A stretch of 64,000 bases of DNA from an uncultured Chloroflexia bacterium (GCA_963837315.1 CAWINE010000013.1:75780-139779), one strand, 5' to 3'; positions 7,729 to 60,048 are shown, numbered from the stretch's first letter. Translations and numbers: made by a program. Notes: generated from the sequence alone by a model not told the origin.

Positions 7729-7748
7729 CAGTACCCTCCATGTATGGT

Positions 7749-7820: not shown

Positions 7821-7827
7821 ACGTCCC

Positions 7828-28693: not shown

Positions 28694-28699
28694 GATATG

Positions 28700-29859: not shown

Positions 29860-30336
29860 ATGATAGAAGATATCGCCATCCGTATCGCCGCTCTCTCCGA
29901 CGCCCCAACCATAGCCGCCATCCTCCACCAGGCCTTCGTGGAGTTCGAGCCTATCTACACGCCCGGAGGCTTCGCCGCGACCACTCCCACCGCCGAGCAG
30001 ATTGAAGCCCGGTGGGACGAAGGGCCTGTGTGGATTGCTTTGCTGGATGGCGCAATCATTGGTACAGTAGCGGCAGTGCCGAAAGGCGATTCGCTTTACG
30101 TAAGGAGCATGGCAGTCCTGCCGGAGGCGAGGGGCCATCACACCGGCGAGCGATTGCTTGATCAAATAGAGAATTACGCACGCGAGCACGGCCTTGTGCG
30201 CCTTTACCTCAGTACCACTCCTTTTCTCGCCCGCGCCATCCGGCTTTACGAAAACTACGGCTTCCAGCGAAAGAACAGCGGCCCGCAGGACCTGTTCGGC
30301 ACGCCATTGTTCTCGATGGAGAAGTACTTGAAATGA
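29860..30336 (+). CDS. GNAT-family N-acetyltransferase
   Basis: 158-aa ORF with an acetyl-CoA-binding-like segment (MAVLPEARGHHTGERLLDQIENYAREHG) and YENYGF. Its stop overlaps the purB start (ATGA). Confidence 0.75.
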   Translation: MIEDIAIRIAALSDAPTIAAILHQAFVEFEPIYTPGGFAATTPTAEQIEARWDEGPVWIALLDGAIIGTVAAVPKGDSLYVRSMAVLPEARGHHTGERLLDQIENYAREHGLVRLYLSTTPFLARAIRLYENYGFQRKNSGPQDLFGTPLFSMEKYLK

Positions 30337-40723: not shown

Positions 40724-40873
40724 GATTGCGGATTGCGGATTGCGGATTAGTCTTTACCGCCAAGACGCCAAGATCCGCCAAGGGCCGCCAAGATTTTTAT
40801 TGGTGTAAGCAGTAAGCAGTAAGCAATATCCGCAATTCGTAATCCGCATTCCGCATTCCGCATTCCGCATTCC
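40724..40873. repeat. composite repeat element (copy E)
   Basis: Outer arms are (GATTGCG)3 (40724-40748) and atatccgcaattcgtaatccgcattccgcattccgcattccgcattcc (40826-40873). Inside are a GCCAAGA block (40756-40793) and (GTAAGCA)3 (40805-40825). The element ends 3 nt before the mrp ATG. Confidence 0.9.
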
Positions 40874-44379: not shown

Positions 44380-45864
44380 TCAACCGGCGAGAACCCTGCC
44401 CATTGGCGGTCTCTCCACGGGCCCGAGGGCGCGCACTTCGAACATGCTTGGGGCGGAGTCGCTCCGCGCTGAGACGTGCTTGCCCTCGATCTCTTTTTGC
44501 AGGCGCTCGGCGATCTCGGCAGCACAGCGGCGCATGTCGGGGTCTTGCAGGCGGCGGGCCATGATTTGGAGGATGTCTATGGCGCTTCTGACAGCGGGCG
44601 GCGGCGGGAGGCTCGGCTGGTGATGCTGTAGCTCGACCTGGGCGATGGCGTTGGTGCCGTACTGGGCGGCCACGGAGAGAAGCAGGCCCAGCTCAAGATT
44701 CTCCCCGGCGAACACCGGCATGCCCAGCATTGTGTCGCGCCTGGCGGACAGATCGCGGCTGAAGGGGGCCACCACCGCGGCCAGCGAAGGGCTGAGCACC
44801 TGCAAGAGGGTGCGCGGAGGCAGCATTGCGATCTGCCCCGCCGAAAGGGAGGCAAGGTCGGACGGCTTCAGAGCCTGCACCCGCACCTTCTCAGAGAGAG
44901 CACCTGAATCGCGGTGCGGCACGATAAAGTCTCCCCAGCTCATGTCCGCGACTGCGAAATCTTCGTCCTTACCCTGGTTAGCCGAGCGCGCAATGCCTGA
45001 TGTCTCGGCCTGGCCAAAAGCTTTCACCAATTGGAGCCCCGAATTGCGCAGCAGTGGCCCCGCCAGCGAAAGCGCAGTGCTGGGGTGGAACCGCTTTGCG
45101 CGAGGGTCCAGCCATACAAGGATGTCTCCGCGCATCACCGCAAGGCTCTTCCACCAGCACTCGCCCCGACCATGCAGGTCGCCCTGCGAGGGCACTATCT
45201 CGCTCGCCTGGTATACCTCCACTCCCAGGTCTCGCGCTCTTTCAAGAGTAGTGTCGGTTGAGCCTGCATCCACCACCACTATCTGGTCGGCAATGGGGTG
45301 CATCTCCATCAGCACACGCTTCAGGCCGGTTAGCACCGAATAAATGTGTTTGTCGTCGTTGGAGGTCAGCACCCCAATGCTCAGGGTGAGGCCGCTTGCC
45401 TGCTTGGCTCTCAAGAACTCTTCCGGGTCTTTGAACTCGTCGCCGTGATAAGTATGTTCCACGAACCAGTGCTCGAACGGCATATCGGTCCAATGCTTCC
45501 CGGAGCGCCCGGCCCTCACCTTGCGACTATACCCCGCCAGGTCGATCGAGGCAGGAGTGCTCACAAGGAGCATCGGCGGCCCTTTTACCTGCGACACGCG
45601 CATGGCTACGGAGCTTTCCGCCGGACGGCGGCCGTCATTCAAGCCAATATCGGTCGCCGCTCGCTGCTCGCCACGCGCTACCGGGGAAGGGAGGCCCATG
45701 ATGAGGAGGTCATCAGGGCGGGTCTCGCCCAGCAAAGCCTCTACAGGGTCGGCTTGTCGAGTCAGGATGCTCTCCACCGGCACCGTTACATGCTCGCGCA
45801 TCTGCTGCATCTGCTCGTTGAACACGATATAAGGCTCTTCTCCCAGAGCCTCTACCTGCGTCAA
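44380..45864 (-). CDS. glucosyl-3-phosphoglycerate-synthase-like GT81 glycosyltransferase domain preceded by a C-terminal half of a USP domain
   Basis: TTG-start ORF containing VVVDAGSTDTTLERARDLGVEV, GRGECWWKSL, LQLVKAF, AIAQVEL and GPVERPPM, which parallel known GpgS motifs. The DxD position reads WLDPRA. The N-terminus (VPVESILTRQADPVEALLGETRPDDLLIMGLPS) is the second half of a universal-stress-protein fold. Confidence 0.6.
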   Translation of the reverse strand: MTQVEALGEEPYIVFNEQMQQMREHVTVPVESILTRQADPVEALLGETRPDDLLIMGLPSPVARGEQRAATDIGLNDGRRPAESSVAMRVSQVKGPPMLLVSTPASIDLAGYSRKVRAGRSGKHWTDMPFEHWFVEHTYHGDEFKDPEEFLRAKQASGLTLSIGVLTSNDDKHIYSVLTGLKRVLMEMHPIADQIVVVDAGSTDTTLERARDLGVEVYQASEIVPSQGDLHGRGECWWKSLAVMRGDILVWLDPRAKRFHPSTALSLAGPLLRNSGLQLVKAFGQAETSGIARSANQGKDEDFAVADMSWGDFIVPHRDSGALSEKVRVQALKPSDLASLSAGQIAMLPPRTLLQVLSPSLAAVVAPFSRDLSARRDTMLGMPVFAGENLELGLLLSVAAQYGTNAIAQVELQHHQPSLPPPPAVRSAIDILQIMARRLQDPDMRRCAAEIAERLQKEIEGKHVSARSDSAPSMFEVRALGPVERPPMGRVLAG

Positions 45865-45890
45865 TTGCGGATTGCGCGGATTGCGGATTA
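45862..45890. repeat. single AATCCGC-type arm at the junction of the two ORFs
   Basis: The plus-strand sequence is caattgcggattgcgcggattgcggattatt. It supplies the TAA that ends ORF 45888..46661 and the TTG that starts ORF 44380..45864. Confidence 0.85.
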
Positions 45891-46661
45891 TTCCGGGTCA
45901 TCGCCGGCCGGGAACTGGTCGTCTGTCGCCCGTCCTTCGTCCGTGCTCGCCGGCACATTATGCATCACCGCTACAGGAAGCCTCATGCGCTCGGCGAGCG
46001 ACATGCCTACTTGCAGCGCGTGCTCTGCCGCTGGACCGCCACGCACCGGTAGGAAGACGCGCCTGCTTTTCCGCCAGCCTTCCAGGCGAGCGAGAATAAC
46101 GTTGCAAGGGGGGTTCTTGAGAGCAGCGTCGGTGATGCGCCCGTATAGGTGGCGCTTCGGCTCGCGTGCGTAGCCTTTCCAGTAGAGAAGCATCGTGTCT
46201 GCACGCTCGTCACGAGCCGCCTGGTGTATGGCCCCCGCTACGTCGCGCGCCACTTTCACCACCCGGTCCACTCGCGCCCTCCGGCCTTCCAACTCCACCT
46301 CGGAAGGCAAGAAGTCGAGCAATGCGCGATACGAGCGCGCCATATCGAGGCCCATCGTCAGAGGCTCGTCCGGCGGCACCTCCACCACGCTCAGGACGAC
46401 GATGCGCGGAAGGCGTTCCAATTGCGGATTGCGGATTGCGGATTGTGGATTGACGGGGTATCGCCGGTCGTCGGTCATCAGTTCATGAATGGACAGGGGA
46501 CTGTCGCCGCTTGTTGGTCCCACCAGCATCCCTGCAAGCTGAAGTATCTCCGCCGCGTGGCCCGTGTTTAGCATGGGCACCAGTACAACGGTAGGTGCCA
46601 GATCCGACAATATTGAATTACCGGCTGCGGAGAGCAGCCCGTCTTTGAGCATACTATTCAT
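45888..46661 (-). CDS. tandem universal-stress-protein-like domains (probably the N-terminal part of one gene with 44380..45864)
   Basis: 257-aa ORF with USP-like beta-alpha units (VVLVPMLNTGHAAEILQLAGML; RIVVLSVVEVPPDE...ADTMLLYWKGY; VFLPVRGGPAAEHALQVGMSLAERMRLPVAVMHNV). The third unit is truncated at the repeat. It contains the in-frame repeat peptide VNPQSAIRNPQLE. Confidence 0.6.
   Translation of the reverse strand: MNSMLKDGLLSAAGNSILSDLAPTVVLVPMLNTGHAAEILQLAGMLVGPTSGDSPLSIHELMTDDRRYPVNPQSAIRNPQLERLPRIVVLSVVEVPPDEPLTMGLDMARSYRALLDFLPSEVELEGRRARVDRVVKVARDVAGAIHQAARDERADTMLLYWKGYAREPKRHLYGRITDAALKNPPCNVILARLEGWRKSRRVFLPVRGGPAAEHALQVGMSLAERMRLPVAVMHNVPASTDEGRATDDQFPAGDDPE
46420..46452. repeat. 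single (GATTGCG)n arm inside the USP-like CDS
   Basis: aattgcggattgcggattgcggattgtggattg is translated in frame on the minus strand as NPQSAIRNPQ. Confidence 0.85.
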
Positions 46662-46695: not shown

Positions 46696-46803
46696 GAATG
46701 CGGAATGTGGAATTCGGAATGCGGAATATCGATTATTGTTTACTGCTTGTCACGTTTTACATGCGTCGTTATTCCGCATTCCAAATTCCGAATTCATCAT
46801 TCC
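46696..46803. repeat. GCGGAAT-type hairpin element
   Basis: The left arm gaatgcggaatgtggaattcggaatgcggaat (46696-46727) is identical over 32 nt to 59550-59581. The right arm is tattccgcattccaaattccgaattcatcattcc (46770-46803), and it overlaps the vWA stop codon. Confidence 0.9.
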
Positions 46804-48135
46804 TTAAGTCTCGCCGTCTCTGCAGCCGACAGTTTGCGAGTCTCAAAGGTTAGCTTCTTGGTAGCCGCGGCACTTACATGCCCTTCGGATTCGATCTTCT
46901 GGGCCTCTTTTTCCGCCGCCTCGGCAAGATCGGTCTCACCGAGGTTCAAAAGGCGAGTGGCCGCTGCGCGCAGATTGCGCGTCGCCCCCTCCACATCGCC
47001 TACCATACTGGCTTGTAACGCTCTTGTTTGCAACTTGAACGTGGTCGCTTTCTCCACACTGTTCATCACCCTTGGATTGCCCGGGCCTGTGCCTGCTCCG
47101 GTGGCAAAGCCTACAACCAGGTCGATGGCGGTGTCACCTTTGGTCTGGCCGGGGTCTGATGTTTCATATTCAAGCATAAGGTGGGCCAGGCGATAGCTGC
47201 CCGGCTTCCGAGCCGGTATCACTATCTCGTAAAGAAGCGTCTGCCCGTCAGCCGACTGGATGTCGCCCAGAGGCAGGGTGAGGGAAGTGGCCGCGCCGCT
47301 CGTCTGGGGCTGCGCGACGGCTTCCGTCTGGCCGGGCCCCGCGGGCTCGACGCTGGGCCAAAGCCTGGATATAACCGGCGCAACCCTGTACACTGTGCGA
47401 GCCGCTACCCCGCCGGTAGGCGTGAAGGTAAGGCGCAGAGTTGCGCGCGGTGGTTGCCTGCATAGCTCGTAAAGTCTTCTCGAAGGTGCCGGCTATCTCG
47501 TCAGGATTGGCGATATAATCAACGTTGCCGCCGCTCTCGCTCGCGATTGCGTCCAGCAACTCGATGCTCCAGTCCTCTTCAGCGCCCACACCTAGAGCGG
47601 TCACAGGTATGCCCGCTGCACCGGCCTGGGCCGCAAGCTCGATGCACTGCTGTCCGTCGCCCCATGTCTGCCCATCGGTAAGCACTACGATGCGCGATAC
47701 GACCCCCTGCCCCTGCGCCTTCATCGCTTCGCTCAAGCCGACGGCCAGCCCCTTACTCATCGCGGTGCCGCCTGCCTCTTTTATGGCCTCGACCTGGCCG
47801 AGCAGAGCCCGGGGATCGTCCGCTTTCGTGCTCGGCACCAGAGGGTGCACGTCGTCGTCGAAAAGGGTGATAGCAATCGTATCTTGCGGGCTGAGATGGT
47901 CGACAACCCAGGCCACGGCCTTCTTCAAGTTTTGTAGCTTCGCCCCGCCCATCGAGCCGGACCTGTCCAGCACCAGACTGAGGTTAAGTGGCTGCGCCCC
48001 ACCGGAGGACGCCGGCGGCGGCACGGGCGCATCTTGCTGCGTTATGTCAAGCAATAGATAGGCGAGACTTGTCTGCTCGCCCGCAGGAAGAGGGTCGTGA
48101 TTCCAGGTAGCCTTAAGAGTGATGTTCGCGGTCAT
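46797..48135 (-). CDS. von Willebrand factor A (vWA) domain protein, one apparent frameshift
   Basis: ORF 47248..48135(-) has the MIDAS motif LVLDRSGSMGG, then GGTAMSKGL and VVLTDGQTWGD. After ...MQATTARN the frame degenerates. ORF 46797..47393(-) continues in another frame as TLRLTFTPTGGVAARTVYRVAPVIS..., with the junction near 47425-47440. Confidence 0.75.
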
Positions 48136-48240: not shown

Positions 48241-50454
48241 CTAAGTCGCCCCGGCCATCACTCGCGTGAGCACCACGCTTATGTTATCTTCGCCGCCGTT
48301 GGCGTTGGCCTGGTCTATAAGGGCCTGGCTGATGGTCTGGGGGTCGGTGGGAGAGGCCAGTATAGATGCGATGCTGGGATCGCGCACGAAATCCCACAAT
48401 CCGTCCGAACAGAGGAGCAGGCCATCCCCCGGTCTAAGCCGCTGGCTGTAGACGTCTATCTCGTCTTCGGTGAGGCGCGAATTGCCCAGGGCGCGGTAGA
48501 TTTCGTTGCGACGCGGGTGCGTGTAAATGTCATCGGGCTTGATTTGCCCCGCCATCACAAGCTGCATTACCAGCGAGTGATCGCGCGTGAGGACCTGCAA
48601 AGTATTGTCGTGCCAGATATAGGCCCGGCTATCGCCCACGTTTGCAACCGTCAACTGGTTGCCTATGAGGAGCGCAACCACCGTGGTGGTGCCCAGATCC
48701 GAGTGCCGCTCACGAGCCAGATCGGTGATACGCCGGTTGGCTTCGAGCACCGCTTGCTGCAACAGATGGCCGCAGGTATTGGCGTCGCGGGCCACAGGGT
48801 CGCCCGATACGAGCGGACCCAGCAGCGAGGAGTTCACCACAGCCCCTATCGTGCGGATCGCGATAGACGAAGCCACCTCGCCGCTCTGGTGCCCTCCCAT
48901 GCCATCCGCGATCACGTACAGGGCCACCGGAAGATTGCCTTCGTGCTCCAGTACTGTGGCTTCGAAGGTGAGCACGCTGTCTTCGTTTATCTTGCGCACC
49001 CTGCCCACATCGGAGGCTCGCCCGCTCCAGAGCTTAAGGTTGGTGAGGGGCTTGCTCGCCTCGTAGAGATCGCGCAATACCTCGGCGAAGGCATGTGCGG
49101 TAGGGTAAGAGCCTTCTCGCGCTCGCGCCAGTGCCACAGCCGGGTTCATGTCGCGGCCCAACGGTCCCGTCACTTCGTAGGCCGCCACCATCGGCATTGG
49201 CGAGATTGCGACCCCCGAACGCTCCTTAGATACAGGGCCAGGCTCACCTTCCTCGGGAGCGACCTCTTTGCGTACGGCCATGTACCAGCGCTCCAGCTCC
49301 GATGCCAGGGCCCGCACATCCGAAAGCTCGGCTGAGTCTCGCTCTTGCATGCTCAGGTTATCTGTCACGCTGCAACCCGAAGGATCGAGCAGCAGCACGC
49401 GGTCACCCGGCTGCACAAGCAAATTGGCAAGCTCCAGCGCGCAACCGGCTATACTCTCGTCGTGAAGCCGCGCCAGCAAATCAGCAGCCTGCACCATCCA
49501 GGCAAGGGTCTGCTCTTCTTCAGGTTCTAGCGGTACTGCGAGGTGGCCCGACTGGCTCGCCAGCAATTCGTCCGTTACCGTGGACCCCGGCAGCCAGGAG
49601 GCCAGAGTTCGCCCTGATGCTTCCTCCCAGGCCACGTAAATCCGTCCCGTTTGCTCGTCCACCCAAACATCATAGACATGCGCCACGCCCATCACCCGGT
49701 TCTCGAGGATCGCAGGAGCGATCTTGATTGCGGATTGCGGATTGCGGATTGCGGATTGCGAGGACGAAGGTGCATTGCCGATTGCGGATTGCTCAGGAGT
49801 GAGAGCCGGGTACTGAGGATTGAGTGCGGTTTCTTCTACTCCGGCGGCCACTCCCTCGGCTACCATCTCCGGCCCACCCCCACCGTTCGCTATGAGTCCG
49901 TTGCCTGCCGCCGGTACGCCGTCGTCGGTGGTCGATCGTCCGTCGTCCGCCGGCAGATTATACTCTTGCAGCCTGTAGAAGCGTCCCGCCAGTTGCGCGC
50001 CGCATTCCACGCAGTAAATATCGCCGGGCATGGAGCTATCTGAGCCGCAGGCCCAGCAGCGGCGATAGCCTTGCAGGTCGGTCACGCGGTACATATTGGT
50101 ATCGCGCACAACGCCGAGAAAAGCCGCCACCTGGTAGCGCTCGTTCAGCACGGTGTGTTCAGCAAGAGGAGGTGAGGGCGGCCCGCCATTCTCAGGCAAG
50201 GGGGTAGTATTCTTGCCGCGTGTCGTGCCAATGGTGCCAAGCGGCTCGGTGATGATGTTATCCGGCGAGACTGCTACTGCCTCGACTTCGGATTTGGCTG
50301 CAGGCTGTTCGGCCTGTGCGGCATCTTGCGCCTGTGCTGGTGTGTCGCCGGGTGGCGGCTCAGGAGATAGTTCAGACGGTTGAGGGGGTTGAGGAGGTGG
50401 CTGAGGCTGTGTCTCTTCCTCGCTGGTGGGGCCGGCTGCCGGATCTATATTCAT
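48241..50454 (-). CDS. PP2C Ser/Thr phosphatase fused to an N-terminal Zn-ribbon-containing kinase-like (pseudokinase) domain
   Basis: ORF 48241..50577(-). The likely start is ATG 50454 (MNIDPAAGPTSEE), and the upstream codons translate hairpin 50483-50579. The C-terminal PP2C domain has GRVRKINEDS, YVIADGMGGHQSGEVAS, VANVGDSRAY, LLLCSDGLWD and GGEDNISVVL. The N-terminal part has LNERYQVAAFLG, the Zn ribbon CWACGS...CVECG, and a kinase-like C-lobe whose catalytic loop reads GCALELANLL and whose DFG position reads DPS. Confidence 0.8.
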   Translation of the reverse strand: MNIDPAAGPTSEEETQPQPPPQPPQPSELSPEPPPGDTPAQAQDAAQAEQPAAKSEVEAVAVSPDNIITEPLGTIGTTRGKNTTPLPENGGPPSPPLAEHTVLNERYQVAAFLGVVRDTNMYRVTDLQGYRRCWACGSDSSMPGDIYCVECGAQLAGRFYRLQEYNLPADDGRSTTDDGVPAAGNGLIANGGGGPEMVAEGVAAGVEETALNPQYPALTPEQSAIGNAPSSSQSAIRNPQSAIKIAPAILENRVMGVAHVYDVWVDEQTGRIYVAWEEASGRTLASWLPGSTVTDELLASQSGHLAVPLEPEEEQTLAWMVQAADLLARLHDESIAGCALELANLLVQPGDRVLLLDPSGCSVTDNLSMQERDSAELSDVRALASELERWYMAVRKEVAPEEGEPGPVSKERSGVAISPMPMVAAYEVTGPLGRDMNPAVALARAREGSYPTAHAFAEVLRDLYEASKPLTNLKLWSGRASDVGRVRKINEDSVLTFEATVLEHEGNLPVALYVIADGMGGHQSGEVASSIAIRTIGAVVNSSLLGPLVSGDPVARDANTCGHLLQQAVLEANRRITDLARERHSDLGTTTVVALLIGNQLTVANVGDSRAYIWHDNTLQVLTRDHSLVMQLVMAGQIKPDDIYTHPRRNEIYRALGNSRLTEDEIDVYSQRLRPGDGLLLCSDGLWDFVRDPSIASILASPTDPQTISQALIDQANANGGEDNISVVLTRVMAGAT
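49726..49792. repeat. (GATTGCG)5 + (GATTGCG)2 direct blocks inside the PP2C gene
   Basis: gattgcggattgcggattgcggattgcggattgcg (49726-49760) and gattgcggattgc (49780-49792) are translated in frame as EQSAIGNAPSSSQSAIRNPQSAIKIAP. Confidence 0.85.
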
Positions 50455-50482
50455 ATAGCCATAAACCTCGTCAGGCCCGTCT

Positions 50483-50579
50483 GAATGCGGAATACGGAAT
50501 GTGGAATGCGGAATACATAGGTTGTCGGTTGTGGGTCGCCCAGCGGCATTCCGCATTCCACATTCCACATTCCACATTC
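50483..50579. repeat. GCGGAAT/GTGGAAT-type hairpin in the divergent promoter region
   Basis: Left arm gaatgcggaatacggaatgtggaatgcggaata (50483-50515) faces right arm cattccgcattccacattccacattccacattc (50547-50579). The loop contains ggttgtcggttgtggg. Confidence 0.9.
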
Positions 50580-50739: not shown

Positions 50740-52722
50740 ATGGCACATTCGGACGAGCCCATATCCGTCATTGAAGACCTGGACCCGGAGCCGTCTCCCA
50801 GGCGTGGCGGGCGGCAAGTGTGGGAGGTTGTGCTTGGGGTGCTTTTGCTGGCAGGGGTGCTCGGCTATGTCGGTTGGCAGTGGGCCCGGCAGGAAGCCCA
50901 GCAGCGTACCTACGATGCGGGCAGCGACGCTGCGACCCGGCGTGACTGGGACCAGGCACACACCCTCTTTGCAGCAGCATCCGGCTACCTTGACGCCGAC
51001 ACACAAGCAAAGGCAGCCGCCACCACTATCGCAAAGCGCGATGACCTGTATAAAACCGCCCTTGATAATGAGAACGCGGGCAATTGGATGGCCGGCCTCA
51101 AATCCATCCGGCAGGTAGACGATATCCAGCCGGGCTACAAAGACTCTGCCCAGATCGAGGAACTGACCACCGGCAAGATATATGGGCAAGTGTTGAGCGG
51201 CACCGTAGCCCTCCGCGCCGGTGCCACCCCGCCCGGTCTTTACTACTACGGCCCTGACGGCTGGGGGTGGCTGCCTAACAGCGACCTTTACAGCAGAGTA
51301 GAGGGTAGCGGCTCCGGCAACTGGCTGGTGTACGATGTGCCCGGTGAAGGCTGGACACCGGCGCTCACCCCCACTCCACCAGGCCCTGACATCTGGTCGC
51401 CCCAACTGCAGGGCCGCCGCCTACTGGCAGCACGCCTGCCAGATCTCTCCCAAACAATTGCTATCTCCATACCCATCAACCCAAAGCCATATTACCTGTT
51501 TCAATGGGGTAAATACGGACTTTGGGCGACAACCTATGATCCACAGCCAACTCAGTACCCGCCATCAGGCCCAATCCGCCGGCCACTATTCGGGTCGGAG
51601 CAGACAACCGTAACGTATCAAAGCTTCAACGGCTCTATCACCTCACCCACCCAAGTTGAGAATGCGAAAGACAAGGCCATTATTATGGGACTCGACCCCA
51701 ACAGCAATCGCTTTCTGCTGGCTACCTGGTCCGGCGAGGATAGCGATGGCGGGGTCATCGCCGGCACGGTTACCAACCTATACCTGGTGCGCCCCGGCAG
51801 CGACCGCCGGTTACTCTACTCTGTGACAGGCGGCAGTTTCATCTCGGCGCAGTTCAGCCCGGATGGAGTGCACGCTCTGCTCAGCACTTACACTATTCTC
51901 GACGCCGAAAATGAGGAGCGGTCTGTGATCCTCCTTTCTCTCGACGGCACAGCATCACCACAAACAATCGCTGAGACAACAGCCCACATAAACACTCGAT
52001 CTCCTCAGTGCTGTGATAGTTCGCCCGACACCGTTGATAACTCGTTTACCGCATCATTCATAGACGGCGGATCGTACTCAGGCGACATTATAGTGGCAGA
52101 ATATGACCAGGGGCACAACTACCTGCGCCTGATTGACACCCACTGGGGAGCAGCTCAAGTGATTATGATGGAAGTCCCTACTAACAAGCGGCTCAACTGG
52201 TCGATTTTCGAAGGGCAGAACGGGGAGGCGGTGCTGGTTGCCCTGCAGGAACCTTTCATGGAAAACCTCCGCCAGTCGCAACCTTTCATCCAACCGATGC
52301 CCATCACATTCGTTGTCCTGTCGCCTGACGAAGGGCTCAAAGTAACCAGCCTGGTGGTTGACTGGGACCCCTATCGCACCGAGCTTGACTTTGCCACCGT
52401 CGCCGGCAATCAGCTTGTTTTCAATACGTCTACATGTTGTAGCAAGCAGAATAGTAGGTCCGTCTTCTCCTTTCCGACCTCTCGCTTTGGCGTCCAGGGA
52501 GAACAACCTGCGACCACGTACAACGAGACCGGCGCAGCCTCAAGCGATGATCCCCTTAGCTACGGCAGCCAGAGTTTCGGTTCGAGTTTTTTCGCTGATA
52601 TATCGGCAGGCGATCTGCACGCTCGTTACTACGACGACTCGATTGACGTTGTGCTGGAGCACAATGTTGCTTACCTGTACAACACGTCAGAGAATTTTCT
52701 CTGGCAGAGCTCGCTTCGCTAA
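50740..52722 (+). CDS. membrane-anchored protein of unknown function, tandem family member 1 (intact)
   Basis: 660-aa ORF with TATAAT at 50711-50716 upstream. It has a conserved cytoplasmic tail (SVIEDLDPEPSPRR), a TM helix (WEVVLGVLLLAGVLGYVGW), AASGYLDADTQAKAA, GLYYYGPDGWGWLP and an FSPDG-containing propeller-like region, and it ends LEHNVAYLYNTSENFLWQSSLR. Confidence 0.7.
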   Translation: MAHSDEPISVIEDLDPEPSPRRGGRQVWEVVLGVLLLAGVLGYVGWQWARQEAQQRTYDAGSDAATRRDWDQAHTLFAAASGYLDADTQAKAAATTIAKRDDLYKTALDNENAGNWMAGLKSIRQVDDIQPGYKDSAQIEELTTGKIYGQVLSGTVALRAGATPPGLYYYGPDGWGWLPNSDLYSRVEGSGSGNWLVYDVPGEGWTPALTPTPPGPDIWSPQLQGRRLLAARLPDLSQTIAISIPINPKPYYLFQWGKYGLWATTYDPQPTQYPPSGPIRRPLFGSEQTTVTYQSFNGSITSPTQVENAKDKAIIMGLDPNSNRFLLATWSGEDSDGGVIAGTVTNLYLVRPGSDRRLLYSVTGGSFISAQFSPDGVHALLSTYTILDAENEERSVILLSLDGTASPQTIAETTAHINTRSPQCCDSSPDTVDNSFTASFIDGGSYSGDIIVAEYDQGHNYLRLIDTHWGAAQVIMMEVPTNKRLNWSIFEGQNGEAVLVALQEPFMENLRQSQPFIQPMPITFVVLSPDEGLKVTSLVVDWDPYRTELDFATVAGNQLVFNTSTCCSKQNSRSVFSFPTSRFGVQGEQPATTYNETGAASSDDPLSYGSQSFGSSFFADISAGDLHARYYDDSIDVVLEHNVAYLYNTSENFLWQSSLR

Positions 52723-52735
52723 GGAGATTGTTCCG

Positions 52736-54676
52736 ATGCAAAACTCCGATGAGACAATGTCCGTTATAGAAGATCTGGACCCTGAGCCGCCGCCAAAGCG
52801 AAGCGCCCGCACCTGGGAAGTCATCGTGGGCATGGTGCTGCTTGTAGCCGTCCTCGGCTTCGCCGGGTGGGAATGGGTCCACCAGAACCAGCAGCAGAAC
52901 AACTATAGAGAGGGCACTGATGCCATGCGGCCCGTCAGGACTGGGATGTCAGCGCAAGCCCACTTCGCTGCAGCTTCAGGCTATCTCGACGCAGATAAAC
53001 AAGCACAAGCAGTCGCCACTAAGATCACCCAGCGCGATGACCAGTATAGAATTGCAACCTCAAGGTCGAACTCTGGTGATTGGATCGCCTGTTTGAAAGC
53101 TATACAACAGGTCGAGGCCATCGAGCCGGGTTACAAGGACTTGGCTCAAATAGAGAAGAAAGCAACAGGTCAGATTTATCGTGGGGCGATGAGTGGCACC
53201 GTCGCACTCCGCCTCGATGCCAACCCATCAGGCCTGTATTATTACGGAGCGAACGGTTGGGTATGGTTGCCAAAGAGCGACCGCTACAGCAAGGTTCAAG
53301 GCGCTGGCGTTTCTGACTGGCTACTATATGACGTACCTGGCCCTGAGTGGGTTCAACCAGCGCCGCCAACTCCAACAACATCAAGCTCTCAATTAACATC
53401 ACCACAGCTAGCCAAGCGACTTCTTACGGCTGCTAAGATGCCTGATCTCTCTAAAACCGTTACTTTGTCTATTGATCCTGAGCAGTACTATTATTTTGGC
53501 TGGGGCGAAAACGGGCTTTGGGGGTTTCATGACGCTGGAGTGCATGAGAACTACCAGTCACCACTTGGGGTATCATATTGGCCCAGTAGCACGGTAACCT
53601 ATCAGAGCTATAACAGCCCCGCCACATCAACGGTCCAGTTAAAATAGCATCAGCAAAAAGACGATGATCATGGACCTGGACCCGAATGGCGATGACTACC
53701 TTATGGCAACATGGTCAGGAGACAAGCAAGGCATTGTCATCACAAACACCATTACGACCCTATATCTGGTAAGGCCCAGTGACGGGGCCAGCCCACAACT
53801 ACTCTATACGATTACGGGAGGCAGCTTCGCCTCAGCGGAATTCAGCCCCGATGGCCTCCATGCGCTGCTCAGGACTTACTCCTATACCTTTGGTATAAGT
53901 GATTATGCCACAGAGAAACAGACGATGCTGCTGCTTTCCCTGGATGGGACTTCTCCACCACGAACAATTGGAGAATGCAACAGTCGCTGTGGAAAAGTTA
54001 AGAATTGCTCACAACGCCTATCAAGTCAGGGCATCATTTATTAGCGGAGGGCCATACTCAGGTAACATACTGATAGCCGAATTCGACGGAGACCACTATA
54101 ACGTGAGCATGGTAGACACGCAGCGGGGCACGCCAATAATGGGCCTGGAAGTCCCTGGAGACAAGTTCCTCTTCTGGTCGCAGTTTCAGGGGCACAATGG
54201 AGAAAATGTACTAGTCGGTCAGGATGATGACTACAGCGATTTCACTTCTGTTGGCCAAAATCGCCCCGACTTCGATAGTATTCGTCGTCTTCTCACCAAA
54301 CTTGACGCCTAAAGTAACTACCCTAGTGATTGACGAGGACCGCTACGGTGCTGCATTGGGCAATGCAACTATTATCGGCAATCAGTTGGTCTTCAGCATC
54401 TACGCGAACAATATCAGGTCTATTTATTCCTTTCCAATCGATCGCCTGGGTTCTCAGGGAGAGAAACCTAAATCAGTAAGCATAATTGGCCTATCAAGTG
54501 AGAAAGTATACGCAGACAACACCCAAGCATTTGGGCCCGATCTTTTCGCGAACTTGTCCGGGGGAGATCTTGAAGTAAGGCCCTACGATATATCGGTTGG
54601 TTTCCCGCTGGAGCACAATGTGACATACCTTTACGACACCTCACAGAAGGCATCCTGGCAAACCGCACTCCATTAA
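52736..54676 (+). pseudogene. tandem family member 2, at least five frame changes
   Basis: SD aaggag lies at 52721-52726 and the ATG at 52736 (MQNSDETMSVIEDLDPEPPPKR). Homology to member 1 moves through ORFs 52358..53647, 53664..54044, 53899..54312 and 54224..54676 (start mod 3 = 2 -> 0 -> 1 -> 2), with an additional compensating pair near 52925-52965. It ends LEHNVTYLYDTSQKASWQTALH. Confidence 0.65.
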
Positions 54677-54694
54677 ACAAAAGAGAATTAGCAT

Positions 54695-56719
54695 ATGTCA
54701 GTATTCCAACGAGCCAATATCTATTATCGAAGATCTGGACCCTGAGCCGCCGCCAAAGCGAAGCGCTCGCGAACCTGGGAGGTTATTGCGGGCCTCCTGC
54801 TTCTGGTAGCCGTGCTTGGCTTTGCCAGCTGGGAATGGGTTCACCAGACCCGCCTTCAGAACGAGTACGGCGCGGGCACCGATGCCATCGCACGCCAGGA
54901 TTGGGAGTTGGCGGAGGCCGATTTCCAGGCGGCCTCGGGCTATCTCGACGCCGACAAGCAAGCCCAGCAGGCGGTCGACAATATCGCCACGCGCAACGAA
55001 CAGTACGAAGCCGCGGTGGCTGCCGAGAAACTGAGCGATTGGCCCGCGACACTGAAGGCTATCCAGCAGGTCACCCGGATACAATCGAGCTATAAAGATG
55101 CCGTCCAGATTTAGCAGAAGGCAAGCGGCCAGGTCTACAGTGACGCCCTGAGCGGCACTATCGCCCTGCGCACGAGCGCTAACCCACCCGGCCTCTATTA
55201 TTACGCTCAACGCGGCTGGACCTGGCTCCCGAAGAGCGACCAGGGCAGCCAGGTCAGGGGCCAGAGCGCTAACGGCTGGATTGTGTACGATATACCGGGC
55301 GAGGTTGCGGCCTCTGCCGCGCAGCCAACGCAAACCCCGGCGCAAAACGGCAGGCCGGCTCCGCCTACCCTGGCAGGACGCCGCTTGATGGCGATGCCCC
55401 TTGGTGGCCCCGGCCCCGACAAAGCCGCAGAGCTGGCTCTCGATCCCGGCCAGTATAACTCGTTCCAGGCGGTAAATGGGGGCGTGTGGGCGCTGCGCGG
55501 CGGATTTCGCTACGGAGGGAATAACTTCTCCGGTGGGTTCGGCGGGCAGCGGCGTTCGGGACCGGGCTCATTCGCTTTCGGAGCTACGCCGCTCCCTGCG
55601 GCGGGAGCAATATACGAAAGCTATACAAGCGTCCTCACCACCGGTGTAAAGCTGCCCGCCGGCAGGAGCGAGCAGAATAGCGTTGCCACTATCCTCGCCT
55701 TCGACTTAAGCAGTAACAGCTACATCCTGGCAGACTCGCCCCAAACGAACGCCGCGCCCGGCTCCGCTGTCACCGGAACAACTACCCTTTACCTGGGACA
55801 GGCTGGAGGAGATTTGCAAACGCTTTACGGCCAGCCCGACCGTAACATTAGCTCCGCGCAATTCAGCCCTGACGGGACCTATATCATCGCGCACTCGTAC
55901 AGCGTTTCAACGAAGGCGGAGTTGATTTTGCTCTTCAGCCTTCAAAGTAACGCCTCACCGCGTGTACTGGAAGAATTGACAGGGCAGTTGATCGTGAACC
56001 CTCCCGGCAGCCAACCTTCGAACCCAAACGGCAGGCGCGCCTTCAACTTCGCCGGTTACGGGCTTTCTGCCGCATTCCTGCAGGATGGACCGTTCGCCGG
56101 GAAAATCGTCATATCAAGCTACGAGGGCCAACAAACCGACCTGAAGGTAATCGACCCCAGGGATCCCGCCGAGGCACTCGTAGATCTGCAAGCGCCTGGC
56201 AGCAACAGGATTCCCTGGACGATCGACCCCGGCAATAGTCAGATGTCACTGATTTCCGGCCAGGAAATGGCCCCCGGTGGGGTCCAGGCTCTGGAGACGC
56301 TGTGGGTCGTAGCCCTGGTGCCTGGCAAGCAATCGACCATAACCGCGCTCGCCCTCCCCGCAAATAACTTTGCCGATTTGGCTATGGTCGCAGGCGACCA
56401 CCTATCGTTCAGTGCGTACACTCGCGCTCAAAACCGCGGGGAGACACGCTCCGTCCTCTCCTTCCCGACGAGCGGCCTCGGAGCCGCCGGGCAACGAGAC
56501 CCAACTATGTCCGCGCAGTTGGGCTCAACGAGCGGTAACGGCTTCGGCTTTTTCAACCTGGGCGACTACAGCTACGGTCCAACGCTCTTCGCTTACCTCT
56601 CGGGTACCGACCTCCACGCAAGCCTCTACAACGGCGCAGTTGATGTGGCCCTCGAGCCCCACGTAAGCTACCTCTATAACCCTGCTCTGCATCAGATGGC
56701 AAATAATCAGCTTCGGTGA
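54695..56719 (+). pseudogene. tandem family member 3, two N-terminal frame changes and an in-frame TAG
   Basis: ATG 54695 is out of frame with SNEPISIIEDLDPEPPPKRSAR, and the frame returns at TWEVIAGLLLLVAVLGFASW. TAG at 55112-55114 replaces the Glu of the conserved AQIE(E/K) position. The frame then stays open to 56719 (ORF 55283..56719) and ends LEPHVSYLYNPALHQMANNQLR. Confidence 0.6.
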
Positions 56720-56929: not shown

Positions 56930-57041
56930 TATCGGTAATCACCGATTAGATAATAATTGACATCCCCACACCCATGAGGTATAGTTACTGAACACACAAT
57001 GCAGTGTGCTCTATCACGCTTCTCAAGACTACGAGAAAATC

Positions 57042-59551
57042 ATGAGCGCAGCCAACCTCGACGTGGGTGATAGAGAGCCTGAATTGGGCGAAAGCCTTTC
57101 GGAATCAGCACCCCGCCAACAGACCCTAAAACAACCGACGACCGGTCCTGAGCCTGCGAAGGATACCTCGCTAAAGATGCAGCGACCGGCAACCAAAGGC
57201 GCCGCAAATGGCGTCCTCGACGGTCAGAACGGCGCGCGCCCGGCGTCTAACGGACACAAGCCAAAAGCACGCAAAGGCATCGAGATAGAAACGGTCGGCC
57301 AGAGTCCCAGGCCGAAGACTGTCACCCTCGACACGCCTGATAAAGTACGTCCGCAGGCTACAACCCCGACACTGATTTCGAAGGCATCCGCAAATCCTAC
57401 GCCTTCGCTGAGCTTGCCCACGATGGCCAGATGCGCGGCACCGGCGAGCCGTACATCACCCACCCCTTGCAAGTGGCCTATATCCTGGCCGAGATGCACC
57501 TCGACTCTGAGACCATCGAGGCCGCTCTCCTGCACGACACCATCGAGGATACCGCCGCCACCAACGACGACATCACCAAGCTGTTCGGCCCCACCATCGC
57601 GCACCTTGTGGAAGGTGTTACCAAGCTCGGCACGGTCAGCAAGCTGCGCCGCCAGAGCGAAATCGCTGCCGAAAAAGAGCGTGAGCGCGAGAAGAGCCGC
57701 ACCGACACCCACCAGATCCAGGCCGAGAACCTCCGCAAGATGTTCCTCGCCATGTTCGATGACCCGCGCGTGGTGCTCATCAAGCTGGCCGACCGCCTGC
57801 ACAACATGCGCACTCTCCATGGCCTCCCTCCCGAAAAGCAGCAGCGCATAGCCACCCAGACCCTCGAAATCTACGCGCCCCTCGCCAACCGCCTCGGTAT
57901 GTGGCAGATGAAGGGCGAGCTTGAAGACCTGTCCTTCCGCTACCTCGACCCCGAGAAGTTTCGCGAGCTTTCCGACCTCCTCAAGGAGACCGAGACCGCC
58001 CGAGACCGCTATCTTGCCCGCGTCATTACCAACCTCACCGGCGAGATGGAAAGCGCAGGCATCGAAGTCACCATCAAGGGTCGCGTCAAGCACGTATTCT
58101 CCCTCTGGCAGAAGATGCAGCGCAAGAACCGCCCTATCGAGCATATTTACGACCTGCTGGCGGTGCGTATCATCGTCGATTCGGTCAAGGATTGTTACGC
58201 GGCCCTGGGCGTGATCCACTCGCTCTGGCCCCCCATCCCCGGCGAGTTCGACGATTATATAGCGCGGCCCAAAGAGTCGATGTACCAGTCGCTGCACACC
58301 GCCGTGTGGGCGCTCGATAACAAGCCGCTCGAAATCCAGATTCGCACCCATGAGATGCACGAAATCGCCGAGTACGGCATCGCGGCCCACTGGCGCTACA
58401 AGGAGCAGCGTGGCGGCAAGCGGGACTGGCGCTACGAGCAGAAAATCGCCTGGCTGCGCCGCCTGATGAGCTGGCGCGACGAGGTGGAGACCGCCCAGGA
58501 CTTTGTCGAATCGCTCAAAAGCGACCTCTTCCAGGAGCACATTTACGTCTTCACGCCACAGGGCGACATCGTGGAGCTGCCCAAGGGAGCCACGCCCATC
58601 GATTTCGCCTACCGCATCCACACCGACCTGGGCCACCAGGTGGGTGGAGCGAAGATGAACGAAAAGCTGGTGACGCTCGATACGCCTCTGGAAAACGGCG
58701 CTGTAGTGCGTATTATGAAGGACAAGAACCGGGTCGGCCCATCGCGCGACTGGCTGCAGTCTGACCGCTTCATCAAGACCGGCAACGCCCGCCAGAAGGT
58801 GCGCCAGTGGTTCAGCCGCCAGCGCCGCGACGAGAAGATCGTCCAGGGCCGCGCTATCCTCGACCAGACGCTCAAGCACCTGGGCCTAAGCAACGTGGCG
58901 CAGGTCGACATCCTCGAATACTTCCCGCGCTATAAAGAGCTGGACGATTTCCTTGAGGCTATCGGCAATACCGACATCAGCGCGGCCCAGATCACGAGCA
59001 AGGTGGGCGAGCACCGCCAGGAGGAGCTTCTACCCGAAGCCGAAAGCACCGGCGTTACCATCCCGACCAACCTTTCAAACGTGCCGATGGTGCAGCCCAC
59101 CATGCAGGTGAGCGACCTGGGAGGCTTCCTCACGCAGCTTGCGCGCTGCTGCAAGCCCATGCCCGGCGACGAAGTGATCGGCTATACCACCAAAGGGCGC
59201 GGTATCACCGTCCATCGCTCGGATTGCTCCAACCTGTCGCAGGTGCGCGACGTTGGCCGCCTCGTACGCGTCAACTGGGGCGCGAAAGGGATGGCCAGAT
59301 ATCCCGCAGGCGTGCGCATCGAAGCTCTCGACCGCGCCGGATTGCTTCGCGACGTCACCACCATGCTCGCTGACGAGAAAGTGAACATCCTCAGCGTCCA
59401 CACCCACAAGAAACCCGCCTCCGCCACCACCACCCTCATCATGGCCCTCGAAGTCTCCGGTGTAGAACAGCTCTACCAGATGATGGACCGCCTACAGTCC
59501 GTGCATGGGGTGTTCGAAGTGCAAAGGGACACAGGTGGGGCGATTGAATGA
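57042..59551 (+). CDS. relA: bifunctional (p)ppGpp synthetase/hydrolase (RelA/SpoT homolog), apparent frameshift near 57349-57356
   Basis: ORF 57431..59551 has the HD domain (HPLQVAYILAEMHLDSETIEAALLHDTIEDT), the synthetase domain (YIARPKESMYQSLHT), a TGS domain (IYVFTPQGDIVELPKGATPIDFAY) and an ACT domain. The conserved N-terminal helix (GYNPDTDFEGIRKSYAFAELAHDGQ) is open upstream in the same frame but has no start codon. ORF 57006..57851 supplies an N-terminal extension in another frame. Confidence 0.85.
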
Positions 59552-60048
59552 ATGCGGAATGTGGAATTCGGAATGCGGAATGTTAGTCGCGCTTGATTAA
59601 CCTTCAGTAAATCAGTACTGTAAACAGTCCTGGCAATATTCCGCATTCAGGAGCGCTTATTCTGGCGGACAGGGATAACGAAAGCCTTCGCCTTGCGGTG
59701 CTGAAATTGGCAGACAGTTTACCCAGAGAACGTAGCGCTGACGTCATTGGTAAGCAATGCTAAGATGCGCGGCATCAGTTGGCGCGAATTACCGGAGTGC
59801 CTGCCGAGCAAAGTCAACAGCAGATTTCATGCGCAGATGCGATTGTCGGAAGAGGAGCCGACGAAGCTTATCCTCAGATGGAGTTACCGGTTGAAAGCAA
59901 TTTGGTAGCTCAAGGAAACTCACTGGCTTGATGAGACAAGCCAATGAGATAGTTGACTATAGTTGTGGCTTCAGTCAAAACAACAAGAAGTCACAAAGTC
60001 TAACGCAGTCAATAACATTCCGCATTCCGAATTCCACATTCCGCATTC
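59550..60048. mobile_element. MITE-like element: perfect 33-bp terminal inverted repeats flanking a decayed four-helix-bundle (23S rRNA IVS protein-like) gene
   Basis: The left TIR gaatgcggaatgtggaattcggaatgcggaatg (59550-59582) is the exact reverse complement of cattccgcattccgaattccacattccgcattc (60016-60048). The interior has lower GC and, across frames, reads ...LKLADSLPRERSADVIGKQ / RSKADFIAKM.. / ..ELLVESNLV / MRQANEIV.., which fits the TIGR02436-type pattern (my recollection of that family). Confidence 0.6.

Follow-up and report, generated by a model that had tools for sequence, protein, structure and literature searches.

Tandem copies of an uncharacterised, putatively propeller-bearing membrane protein at a conserved locus in Chloroflexia, two of them with disrupted reading frames

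The window analysed here is a stretch of 64,000 nucleotides from an uncultured Chloroflexia bacterium (GCA_963837315.1 CAWINE010000013.1:75780-139779), in which positions 50740–56719 are occupied by three tandem paralogs on the same strand (Table 1). The locus raises two questions, namely what kind of protein the family represents, and whether the copies with disrupted frames are genuine pseudogenes or products of an imperfect consensus sequence.

Table 1. Features of the array and its neighbourhood (positions in the window, except for the layout of member 1, which is given in residues)
Feature	Position	Strand	Remarks
Usp-domain gene (793 aa)	44380..46661	-	broken at ~45874 (+2 nt) inside GCGGATT heptamer repeats
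VWA-domain gene	46797..48135	-	+1 nt insertion at 47439
PP2C protein: zinc-ribbon / degenerate kinase-like / PP2C phosphatase	48241..50577	-	intact, divergently transcribed; start probably 50454 (by ortholog)
Member 1	50740..52722	+	intact 660-aa ORF
Member 1, predicted layout	acidic tail 1-23; TM helix ~27-47; helical stalk to ~151; beta-propeller body 155-648		residues
Member 2	52736..54676	+	full-length copy, 5 frame changes
Member 2, compensated insertion pair	+2 nt at 52925-52926, +1 nt at 52948	+	invariant Trp of RQDWD lies between, out of frame
Member 2, frame 2 to frame 3	53642..53645	+	+1 nt at TTAAAATAG run
Member 2, frame 3 to frame 1 (+1)	within 53976..54027	+	interval only
Member 2, frame 1 to frame 2 (+1)	within 54226..54253	+	interval only
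Member 3	54695..56719	+	ortholog of L001 memB, 84% aa / 86.6% nt identity
Member 3, frame changes	+1 nt at 54698, +2 nt at 54771-54772	+	DNA alignment to L001, translation
Member 3, in-frame TAG	55112..55114	+	closest ortholog CAG (Gln)
RelA/SpoT gene	57006..59551	+	two +1 nt insertions, at 57335 and 57356

The protein family and its genomic address

All three copies share one layout, in which an acidic tail (S[VI]IEDLDPEP) is followed by a single TM helix, then by a helical stalk and finally by a beta-propeller body, and all three carry the motifs S(V/I)IEDLDPEP(S/P)P(K/R)R, AASGYLDADxQA, GLYYY(G/A)xxGWxWLP(K/N)SD, FSPDG and LE(H/P)(N/H)V(A/T/S)YLY(N/D). The invariant residues of the family include Y58, W70, R100, GLY166-168, SD181-182, YDxP198-201, GxW260-262 and AxxS370-373. 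The copies are separated by spacers of 13 nt and 18 nt. Identity between them is 52–63% over the N-terminal 200 aa and 27–46% in the beta body, which argues for old paralogs rather than an assembly duplication.

In the AF2 model of member 1 (pLDDT 81, pTM 0.76, with pTM rising to 0.83 when the beta body is taken by itself), a disordered tail is followed by the TM/helical stalk, with five helices across residues 25–151, and by an all-beta body; the model ends after the last propeller strands, at residue 648 of 660. Foldseek returned propellers only (prolyl oligopeptidase (POP), oligopeptidase B, acylaminoacyl peptidase (AAP) and TolB), with a probability of 1.0 but TM scores of 0.26–0.40, so that these structural similarities are of a generic kind. 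On these points the original description is supported: the three paralogs are old and diverged, and they belong to an uncharacterised protein that spans the membrane once and has a propeller-like body. Sequence searches against Pfam and the PDB gave no match for the family, and none to any well-characterised family was obtained with member 1. Weak Pfam matches to TPR_2, PD40 or WD40 were seen in a few members: TPR_2 in 5 of 24 (best E 1.3e-4) and PD40 (PF07676) in one of 24 at E=0.019, no PD40 match exceeding the Pfam gathering score and neither domain being matched by member 1.

The best structural matches to the beta body were S9 propellers, namely those of POP, oligopeptidase B, AAP and DPP8 (E 3e-7, TM up to 0.40). 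The S9 prolyl oligopeptidases differ from the family, however, in having an alpha/beta-hydrolase catalytic domain, and they share no sequence similarity with it. An S9 identity was ruled out, since the protein ends after the propeller and has no C-terminal alpha/beta-hydrolase domain with its Ser-Asp-His triad; nor was a peptidase Pfam match found among the family members searched. TolB and PD40 (PF07676) proteins resemble the family in their extracytoplasmic propeller and FSPDG-type blade motif, TolB of several species being matched by Foldseek with a probability of 1.0, but TolB superposes on the family model with TM scores of only 0.23–0.32 and an rmsd of about 15 A. Moreover, TolB is soluble and periplasmic and has an N-terminal alpha/beta domain, whereas the family would be anchored in the membrane and would carry a cytoplasmic peptide as well as a helical stalk. 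We know of no Tol-Pal context in Chloroflexia.

In a distant subfamily (P0024, P0132-P0164) a zinc ribbon replaces the acidic tail, which implies that the N-terminus is cytoplasmic. The most likely reading is that the family consists of single-pass (N-in) membrane proteins, each with a short disordered tail in the cytoplasm that bears the near-invariant peptide (I/V)S(V/I)(I/V)EDLDPEP, a TM helix running on into a putatively TPR-like helical stalk, and a large predicted extracytoplasmic propeller of the PD40/TolB/prolyl-oligopeptidase type, but no catalytic domain.

The family comprises 24 close proteins and 235 clusters at E<=1e-30, and every named match is to a Chloroflexia or Chloroflexota MAG. 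In all three window copies and in every homolog in the loci compared (L001-L024), an (I/V)EDLDPEP peptide precedes a single TM helix; among the other proteins of these loci the motif was not found, one chance match apart. The order PurQ-GT87-Usp-VWA-PP2C, then two to four copies of the family, then RelA-LGT is shared by the window, L001, L006, L012 and L016, and the array adjoins RelA in L003 and L008 as well. We are dealing with a Chloroflexia tandem array of an uncharacterised family at a conserved genomic address. Copy number varies from two to four per genome; in L001, the closest relative, exactly one unit is missing, namely member 2. The copies seen in other genomes are all single intact ORFs. 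Adjacent paralogs are 80–83% identical over tail and TM helix where their propellers are 27–42% identical. Elsewhere in the family, the relatives P0008, P0023 and P0025 are truncated or fused.

Frame breaks and constraint in members 2 and 3

Member 1 is intact and the other two copies are broken in the way that had been claimed, member 2 by five frame changes and member 3 by two and a TAG. The frames of member 2 were obtained by three-frame translation combined with frameshift-aware alignment to four homologs, and the latter revealed no in-frame stop. Its shift within 53976–54027 could be placed only as an interval because the loop is variable, different homologs giving 53976, 54012 or 54027. 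In member 3 both shifts lie in the first 80 nt, the first of them directly after the ATG (54695-54697), and the 25 codons between them encode the tail motif, out of frame with both the ATG and the body. The TAG was originally described as replacing a conserved Glu codon. Glu is indeed the majority residue at this column (26 of 43 family sequences), but the closest ortholog has Gln there, so that CAG>TAG is the parsimonious change.

Pieces found by hmmsearch cover family profile positions 1–640 in both disrupted copies. An ortholog of member 2 was looked for and none was found; dN/dS values therefore cover members 1 and 3. Compared with its ortholog, member 3 has a dN/dS of 0.224, as against 0.225 for intact member 1 (77% aa identity to its ortholog in L001), and the value for member 3 is similar in all four regions tested. 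Of the 79 conserved columns of the family, 6 are deviant in member 2 and 4 in member 3, within the range of 0–15 seen in intact members, although the six deviations of member 2 are at the top of the 0–6 range of its own clade. When repaired, member 2 retains 22 of 22 invariant residues. Its body belongs to clade A of the tree; the gene is a mosaic at the 5' end, which is clade-B-like. The repaired copies thus look fully constrained, without decay, member 3 by dN/dS and both by conserved columns, and 'broken' does not mean long-dead.

These data bear on whether members 2 and 3 could be old pseudogenes that have been decaying for a long time. The several lesions per gene would fit such a history, as would the GC content of member 2 (0.512, GC3 0.548), the lowest of any family gene. 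However, GC is displaced mainly at third codon positions, by about 2.7 times as much as at positions 1 and 2, which is what protein-level constraint would lead one to expect, and stop codons are absent from this copy. Since the frames are disrupted and yet neither dN/dS (member 3) nor the conserved columns show relaxed selection, we rejected this explanation as very improbable.

Origin of the breaks

The array holds 8 lesions in 3.98 kb, compared with 0.12–0.34 per kb elsewhere in the window. This 6- to 18-fold excess (Poisson P 4e-8 to 9e-5) agrees with the original observation that breaks are denser here than in the rest of the window. The breaks are nevertheless not peculiar to the array, since at least six other window genes are frame-broken, namely PurB, RelA, VWA, the Usp-domain gene, PQQ-SLH and cyclase-STAND-TPR. 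PurB is split at 31375, and its ADSL_C domain is read, complete, in the other frame; the RelA core outside its two insertions is 98% identical in amino acid sequence to its ortholog; and RelA, VWA and Usp stand broken against intact orthologs in four or five genomes. Wherever an ortholog or a family block of fixed length allowed an indel to be resolved, it proved to be an insertion of 1–2 nt, mostly outside homopolymers. Frame breaks in so many genes point to an error-prone consensus. Several relatives come from Nanopore soil MAGs assembled with Flye and one round of Medaka, a catalogue whose authors themselves mention Nanopore errors where coverage is low.

Within the array, the seven indels fall in one contiguous stretch of ~1.85 kb (52925–54771), about one repeat unit long, which is offset from the gene borders and has at least 2.5 kb of clean sequence on both sides. 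It matches the repeat unit missing from L001. We favour the explanation, to which we give about an even chance, that indel errors in the assembly consensus account for most or all of the breaks. Such errors would be concentrated in one strain-variable or low-coverage repeat unit of the array, on a contig in which single frameshifts occur in essential genes as well. Several findings count against a technical origin: a uniform error process cannot give a 6- to 18-fold excess, so that a low-coverage or strain-variable unit has to be assumed; the TAG is a substitution and lies 340 nt outside the indel block; and member 2 is compositionally odd, its six deviations being compatible with slight real decay.

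Alternatively, members 2 and 3 may be genuine and very recent pseudogenes, products of birth-and-death turnover in a redundant tandem family. This is a serious possibility, though we judge it to fall short of an even chance and prefer consensus errors. It would account directly for the lesion density and for the TAG, which is a simple transition, and it would accommodate the low GC of member 2 as well as its position at the upper end of its clade in deviations. The truncated or fused relatives mentioned above are in line with it. Given a copy number of two to four and the lack of member 2 in the sister lineage, gene loss at this locus is real biology. Nor does the apparent constraint on the repaired copies speak against so recent an event, as three lesions per 2 kb imply a few percent of neutral divergence, which would be invisible against a dS of 0.38. 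On the other hand, short insertions occur in PurB and RelA on the same contig, where real inactivation is implausible. The decay of bacterial pseudogenes is typically deletion-biased, whereas all resolved indels here are insertions. The two indels of member 3 are confined to its beginning and contiguous with the cluster in member 2 instead of being spread over 2 kb, and five indels in member 2 are accompanied by no stop and by the retention of all 22 invariant residues.

It is also conceivable that the breaks are functional, either as sites of programmed ribosomal frameshifting or as phase-variable switches that turn surface paralogs on and off. A tandem surface-exposed family with diversifying ectodomains would be a plausible setting, and one of the shifts sits at an A4 run. 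We nonetheless consider this extremely improbable: the seven sites have no slippery motif or simple-sequence repeat in common, one insertion pair scrambles an invariant Trp, shifted copies were seen in no other genome examined, and identical lesions are present in unrelated housekeeping genes. Because purB and relA bear lesions of the same kind, and because the repaired copies show no decay, the clustered 'pseudogenes' on this contig should not be taken at face value. More generally, genes in metagenome-assembled genomes should be called pseudogenes only when the reads bear this out.

A possible receptor or scaffold

What might such a protein do? The genomic context is envelope-related (LGT, GT87 and GT-C-like genes). 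The family may act as a receptor or scaffold in the envelope, with a peptide for docking on the cytoplasmic side. The propeller would bind a ligand in the envelope or outside the cell, and EDLDPEP, the invariant acidic peptide, would dock a conserved cytoplasmic partner. Tandem copies that keep tail, TM helix and stalk alike while diversifying the propeller could then provide a small repertoire of specificities. Mycobacterial PknD, a single-pass receptor with an NHL-propeller sensor domain, has a comparable topology: in PknD-like receptors, too, one TM helix links a signalling end in the cytoplasm to an extracellular propeller, which presumably binds ligand. They differ in that their cytoplasmic end is a kinase domain, while that of the family is a peptide of ~23 residues, which means that any signalling must proceed via a recruited partner.

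The neighbouring block could in principle supply that partner. The PP2C protein matches PP2C (1.2e-17) and Zn_ribbon_3 in Pfam, and its residues 523–773 match PPM phosphatases in the PDB at 7.5e-35. Sequence searches against Pfam and the PDB did not bear out the pseudokinase part attributed to it, its degenerate kinase motifs being recognisable by eye only. On one reading, the family would serve as membrane sensor arm of the adjacent VWA / PP2C-pseudokinase / Usp module, with the Ser-containing acidic tail as docking or phospho-site of the phosphatase and possibly with output to RelA. In five genomes the Usp-VWA-PP2C genes do diverge from the array, and in seven RelA lies downstream of it; the three block neighbours are all predicted to be cytosolic, the PP2C protein having no TM helix. 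According to a preprint (bioRxiv 10.64898/2026.01.23.701218), operons such as D. radiodurans DRA0331-0334, which combine VWA, Ser/Thr kinase, FHA and PP2C genes, constitute a known signalling module, and the block resembles them in having a VWA protein and a PP2C domain fused to a kinase-like region. It differs from them in that neither an FHA domain nor an active kinase was found in it (no FHA domain or Pkinase match in Pfam and PDB sequence searches), and in that its link to the array is positional and absent in many members.

Further observations make the sensor-arm reading unlikely and leave the original suggestion of a docking or phospho-site for the PP2C protein unsupported. The tail is equally conserved in solitary copies, and many members far from PP2C or RelA have it perfectly preserved (L002, L004, L009-L011, L013-L015, L017). 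Its Ser is not invariant, being replaced by Ala or Pro in some members (P0021-23 carry Y-A-P-IEDLDPEP), and the tail as a whole gives way to a zinc ribbon in the distant subfamily. RelA has a promoter-like site of its own upstream (56957–56985). Our estimate here concerns the function of the family and is not to be added to those for the causes of the breaks. It is tempting to imagine a birth-and-death repertoire of envelope receptors, peculiar to Chloroflexia, in which EDLDPEP recruits the VWA / PP2C-pseudokinase / Usp module or another conserved partner, thereby coupling sensing by the diversified propellers to Ser/Thr signalling and, by way of the conserved adjacency, to the RelA/stringent response, the broken copies being snapshots of turnover; so complete a scheme, however, appears distinctly unlikely to hold.

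If the family functions as an envelope receptor or scaffold, it would define an unnamed, lineage-specific class whose members number in the hundreds in soil Chloroflexia, among which, to our knowledge, almost no envelope or signalling proteins have been studied experimentally. Handles for such study are provided by the 7-residue invariant cytoplasmic peptide and by the conserved address between the PP2C gene and relA. Proteins of the type zinc ribbon-TM-ectodomain (Pfam zinc_ribbon/DZR) have the same N-terminus as the distant branch P0024, P0132-P0164, while the window members and their close relatives carry the EDLDPEP peptide instead.

Array layout and the conserved locus

ORF listing, a tblastn search with member 1 as query and a profile HMM built from 24 homologs located three copies, separated by spacers of 13 and 18 nt. 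Scanning the array for promoters and terminators yielded nothing above shuffled expectation, and the same was true of terminator-like sites in the spacers. The original prediction was accurate and carefully made: every motif that it quoted is found in three of the three copies, the tail peptide being MAHSDEPISVIEDLDPEPSPRR. Its view that the copies are old paralogs rather than an assembly duplication is borne out by the identity between copies, which amounts to 52-63% over the first 200 residues and 27-46% over the beta body. A Tat signal at the 'RRGGRQ' segment was rejected, since RR varies across the family. So was a fourth member, the 669-aa ORF at 61132-63141, which gives no profile match and by eye resembles a multi-pass GT-C-like membrane protein.

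Comparison with L001, the locus of the closest relative, and with loci from GTDB genomes (the related-locus scan used 12 sequences) revealed a conserved order in which PurQ, GT87, Usp (793 aa), VWA and PP2C genes lie on one strand, followed by the divergent array and then by RelA and LGT. The order from PurQ to LGT is kept in the window, in L001, L006 and L012 (two copies each) and in L016 (contig end). The array adjoins RelA also in L003 (two copies, and a third ahead of LGT) and L008 (four copies); solitary family members occur in unrelated contexts in L002, L004, L009-11, L013-15 and L017. At the compared loci outside the window, each family copy is a single intact ORF, in short-read and long-read assemblies alike.

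In an NJ tree, member 1 groups with the homologs P0002 and P0003, and member 2 with P0005 and P0008 (bootstrap 90) within the same clade A (bootstrap 100); member 3 falls in clade B with P0015 and memB, one of the L001 copies. The member 2 unit is missing from L001. Member 2 is itself a mosaic: its propeller belongs to clade A and its first ~230 nt are clade-B-like, with 77-79% identity to member 3 and memB versus 63-64% to member 1 and memA. The compared 5' ends of members 2 and 3 (52736-52965 versus 54695-54920) share an identical run of 38 nt, and the dS of member 3 relative to its ortholog is raised over the first 50 codons (0.79 versus about 0.3-0.4). The similar 5' ends and the raised dS both point tentatively to gene conversion, or to unequal crossing-over, within the conserved 5' region. 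Between adjacent paralogs in several genomes (the L006, L008 and L012 arrays), the tail and TM helix share 80-83% amino acid identity and the propeller just 27-42%, a contrast suggesting that the 5' end undergoes gene conversion or is strongly constrained and that the ectodomain diversifies.

Frame breaks in the array and in the rest of the window

The five frame changes proposed for member 2 were confirmed by frameshift-aware alignment of the DNA to four different homologs, all of which agree; the invariant RQDWD falls out of frame between the two halves of the compensated pair. Member 3 is 86.6% identical in nucleotide sequence to its L001 ortholog. Its TAG had been thought to replace a conserved Glu codon. 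The stop is present and Glu is the majority residue of the family at this column, but the ortholog has CAG, making CAG to TAG the simplest change.

Features of the array, frame breaks and short repeat arrays in window coordinates
Feature	Position	Strand	Observation
Member 1	50740-52722	+	660-aa ORF, intact
Member 2	52736-54676	+	frame-broken copy
Member 2 break	52925-6	+	+2 nt, first half of compensated pair
Member 2 break	52948	+	+1 nt, second half of compensated pair
Member 2 break	~53642	+	+1 nt in TTAAAATAG run
Member 2 break	within 53976-54027	+	+1 nt
Member 2 break	within 54226-54253	+	+1 nt
Member 3	54695-56719	+	frame-broken copy
Member 3 break	54698	+	+1 nt immediately 3' of ATG, relative to L001 ortholog
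Member 3 break	54771-2	+	+2 nt, relative to L001 ortholog
Member 3 stop	55112-4	+	TAG
PP2C gene	48241-50577	-	L001 counterpart at 7430-9697
VWA gene break	47439	-	+1 nt; intact in four or five other genomes
Usp gene break	~45874	-	+2 nt inside GCGGATT heptamer repeats; intact in four or five other genomes
RelA breaks	57335, 57356	+	two +1 nt insertions; intact in four or five other genomes
PurB (adenylosuccinate lyase)	30333-31653	+	split, +1 nt near 31375
PQQ-propeller gene	7828-10960	-	parted from SLH domains in Pro/Thr linker, ~8.5 kb (8560-8600); probable frame split
Cyclase-NB-ARC gene	22943-25827	-	parted from TPR part near 24250-24290; probable frame split
Repeat arrays (examples)	50483-50514 / 50547-50579; 59550-59582 / 60016-60048; 62117-62148 / 62166-62199; 40843-40873; 49726-49760		
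Coding heptamer arrays	49726-49760; 46421-46452; 24258-24290		PP2C gene; Usp gene; cyclase/STAND gene
Heptamer arrays in GT-C-like ORF	62117-62199; 62948-63067		

Members 2 and 3 do not behave as long-standing pseudogenes. In a dN/dS test covering members 1 and 3, member 3, once repaired by removal of the extra bases, was indistinguishable from intact member 1 (0.224 and 0.225 relative to the orthologs; neighbouring genes 0.03 to 0.13), with similar values across tail, stalk and propeller. Of 79 strongly conserved columns examined leave-one-out, 6 deviated in repaired member 2 and 4 in repaired member 3, versus 0-15 in intact members. Despite its five indels, member 2 is free of stop codons and retains 22 of 22 invariant residues. 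Its GC content is the lowest among the family genes (0.512 versus 0.55-0.65; GC3 0.548 versus 0.62-0.80), and the deficit is ~2.7 times greater at third codon positions than at positions 1 and 2, the pattern of a gene constrained at the protein level and not of one left to drift. Metagenomes were also scanned for close relatives of repaired member 2, and none was found. These data lead us to reject long-standing pseudogenes: the pattern of one intact and two broken copies arose either very recently or as an artefact of assembly, and does not testify to an ancient, decaying array.

As the original prediction held, breaks are denser in the array than in the rest of the window: 8 lesions in 3.98 kb, against 0.12-0.34 per kb (P between 4e-8 and 9e-5). 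The background figure is a minimum, drawn from split Pfam domains and from comparison with orthologs. The array is special in density only, however, since the rest of the window is not clean. Outside the array, roughly fifty genes include at least six broken ones, among them two housekeeping genes. The RelA protein is otherwise 98% identical to its ortholog; PurB has Lyase_1 in frame 3 and a complete ADSL_C in frame 1 (junction NLEI/TGGLIFSQ; Pfam E 2e-21); and the neighbouring paralog of the split PQQ-propeller gene, at 5434-7818, carries propeller and SLH in one ORF. So many broken genes, housekeeping ones included, are hard to credit biologically and are typical of an indel-prone consensus. 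A window-wide codon-usage frame plot was too noisy for frameshifts, and a GC3-filtered ORF list is to be read as suggestive. Separately, three overlapping ORFs (221, 395 and 416 aa) at 26180-28899 on the minus strand, with repetitive low-complexity matches to Rax2, DUF6087 and DUF2510, may belong to a single large repetitive protein interrupted by additional frame breaks.

The seven array indels form one contiguous block (52925-54771), which starts about 190 nt into member 2, ends 77 nt into member 3 and is flanked by indel-free stretches of 5.5 kb on the left and 2.5 kb on the right. Its length is about that of one repeat unit (1,846 versus 1,959 nt) and it matches the unit absent from L001; a unit of this kind is what would be gained or lost if unequal crossing-over took place in the conserved 5' regions. 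Members 2 and 3 may be redundant copies that were genuinely inactivated very recently, a reading with a substantial if less than even chance: it fits the lesion density, the copy-number turnover at the locus, the TAG in member 3 and the fact that member 2 deviates slightly often for its clade. Had member 3 decayed independently, indels would be expected across its 2 kb, whereas they are confined to the 4% of its length abutting member 2. Wherever an ortholog or a family block of fixed length allowed an indel to be resolved, in or out of the array, it proved to be a 1-2 nt insertion; gene decay in bacteria is normally deletion-biased. The reading we prefer, and to which we give roughly an even chance, is that the unit spanned by the indel block would be strain-variable or thinly covered in the population sampled, yielding a poor consensus and hence the breaks. 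Several family relatives derive from the Nanopore MAGs of Microflora Danica, a set assembled by Flye and given a single round of Medaka polishing, for which the authors note Nanopore-associated errors where coverage is low (PMC12313526).

A membrane-anchored propeller family and its PP2C neighbour

Member 1 matches no well-characterised family, as judged from Pfam, PDB and profile searches and from structure prediction. Member 1 had no significant match in Pfam or among PDB sequences, and member 1 and family profile searches together returned noise only (DUF6187, E 0.09; nitrite reductase, E 0.5; an ATG16L1 WD repeat, E 1e-3). Weak TPR_2 matches occur in a few family members, and PD40 and WD40 in one member each. 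A word-indexed search found 24 relatives, each annotated 'hypothetical', and an exhaustive search with the profile gave 235 clusters at E<=1e-30 (884 at E<=1e-10), most of them full-length proteins of 600-700 aa. The family is thus real, unnamed and moderately large, and its named genome matches are all uncultured Chloroflexia or Chloroflexota MAGs.

The AlphaFold2 model of member 1, built with the family alignment (pLDDT 81, pTM 0.76), has a disordered tail (residues 1-23), a helix that starts at residue 25, crosses the membrane and runs into a five-helix stalk ending at residue 151, and an all-beta body (residues 155-648; pTM 0.83 when modelled alone). Foldseek matched beta-propellers only, with probability 1.0 but a TM of just 0.26-0.40: prolyl oligopeptidase, oligopeptidase B, acylaminoacyl peptidase, TolB and CylK with the body alone (top TM 0.40), and generic propellers including eIF3b and DPP8 with the whole model (TM<=0.36). 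The predicted fold class is accordingly clear, and no specific structural family can be named. The propeller is the end of the protein, with no catalytic domain after it. In a distant branch (P0024, P0132-P0164), a CxxC...CxxC zinc ribbon takes the place of the acidic tail, which argues for a cytoplasmic N-terminus and an external propeller. Its proteins cross the membrane once and carry a conserved cytoplasmic peptide, a helical stalk and a propeller ectodomain; the family has diversified in tandem and is restricted to Chloroflexia. Membrane-anchored propeller architecture being already familiar, what is new is an uncharacterised variant of it. P0025 (1175 aa) consists of two family copies fused head-to-tail, the second minus its first ~110 residues, and P0008 and P0023 are frameshift-truncated members in other assemblies, so turnover or assembly trouble in the family is not confined to the window.

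The propeller would bind an envelope or external ligand, and the tail peptide would dock a conserved cytoplasmic partner. The earlier suggestion that this partner is the adjacent PP2C protein, with the tail as its docking or phospho-site, is not supported and has a low probability. In its favour, the three neighbours of the array (Usp, VWA and PP2C) are cytosolic and the adjacency is kept in five genomes; against it, the tail is equally conserved in solitary copies far from PP2C and RelA, its Ser is not invariant, and the block has neither an FHA domain nor a kinase recognisable as active. The PP2C protein carries a kinase-like N-lobe into which a CxxC...CxxC zinc ribbon is inserted; its catalytic motifs are degenerate (CALELANLLV for HRDLKPxN, LDPSGC for DFG), and searches against Pfam and PDB kinases gave no match. 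It resembles a split pseudokinase joined to a PPM phosphatase that appears intact.

Short tandem repeats

Short tandem heptanucleotide arrays occur window-wide (GAATGCG/CATTCCG, GATTGCG/TCCGCAA, ACTGACA, CGTTTTA), as do arrays of 8-10-mers (CACGAAGGT, ACGCCAAG). Each has about 4-5 copies. The majority occupy intergenic spacers, where they often form inverted pairs either side of genes, reminiscent of the STRR repeats of cyanobacteria. The heptamer arrays within coding regions read as 7-residue repeats in linkers (SAIRNPQ and FRIPHS/CGMRNAE types), and the window and L001 differ in their length. Outside the paralog array, two frame breaks lie in or beside heptamer repeats, one in the Usp gene (~45874) and one at the cyclase/TPR junction (~24260-24290).
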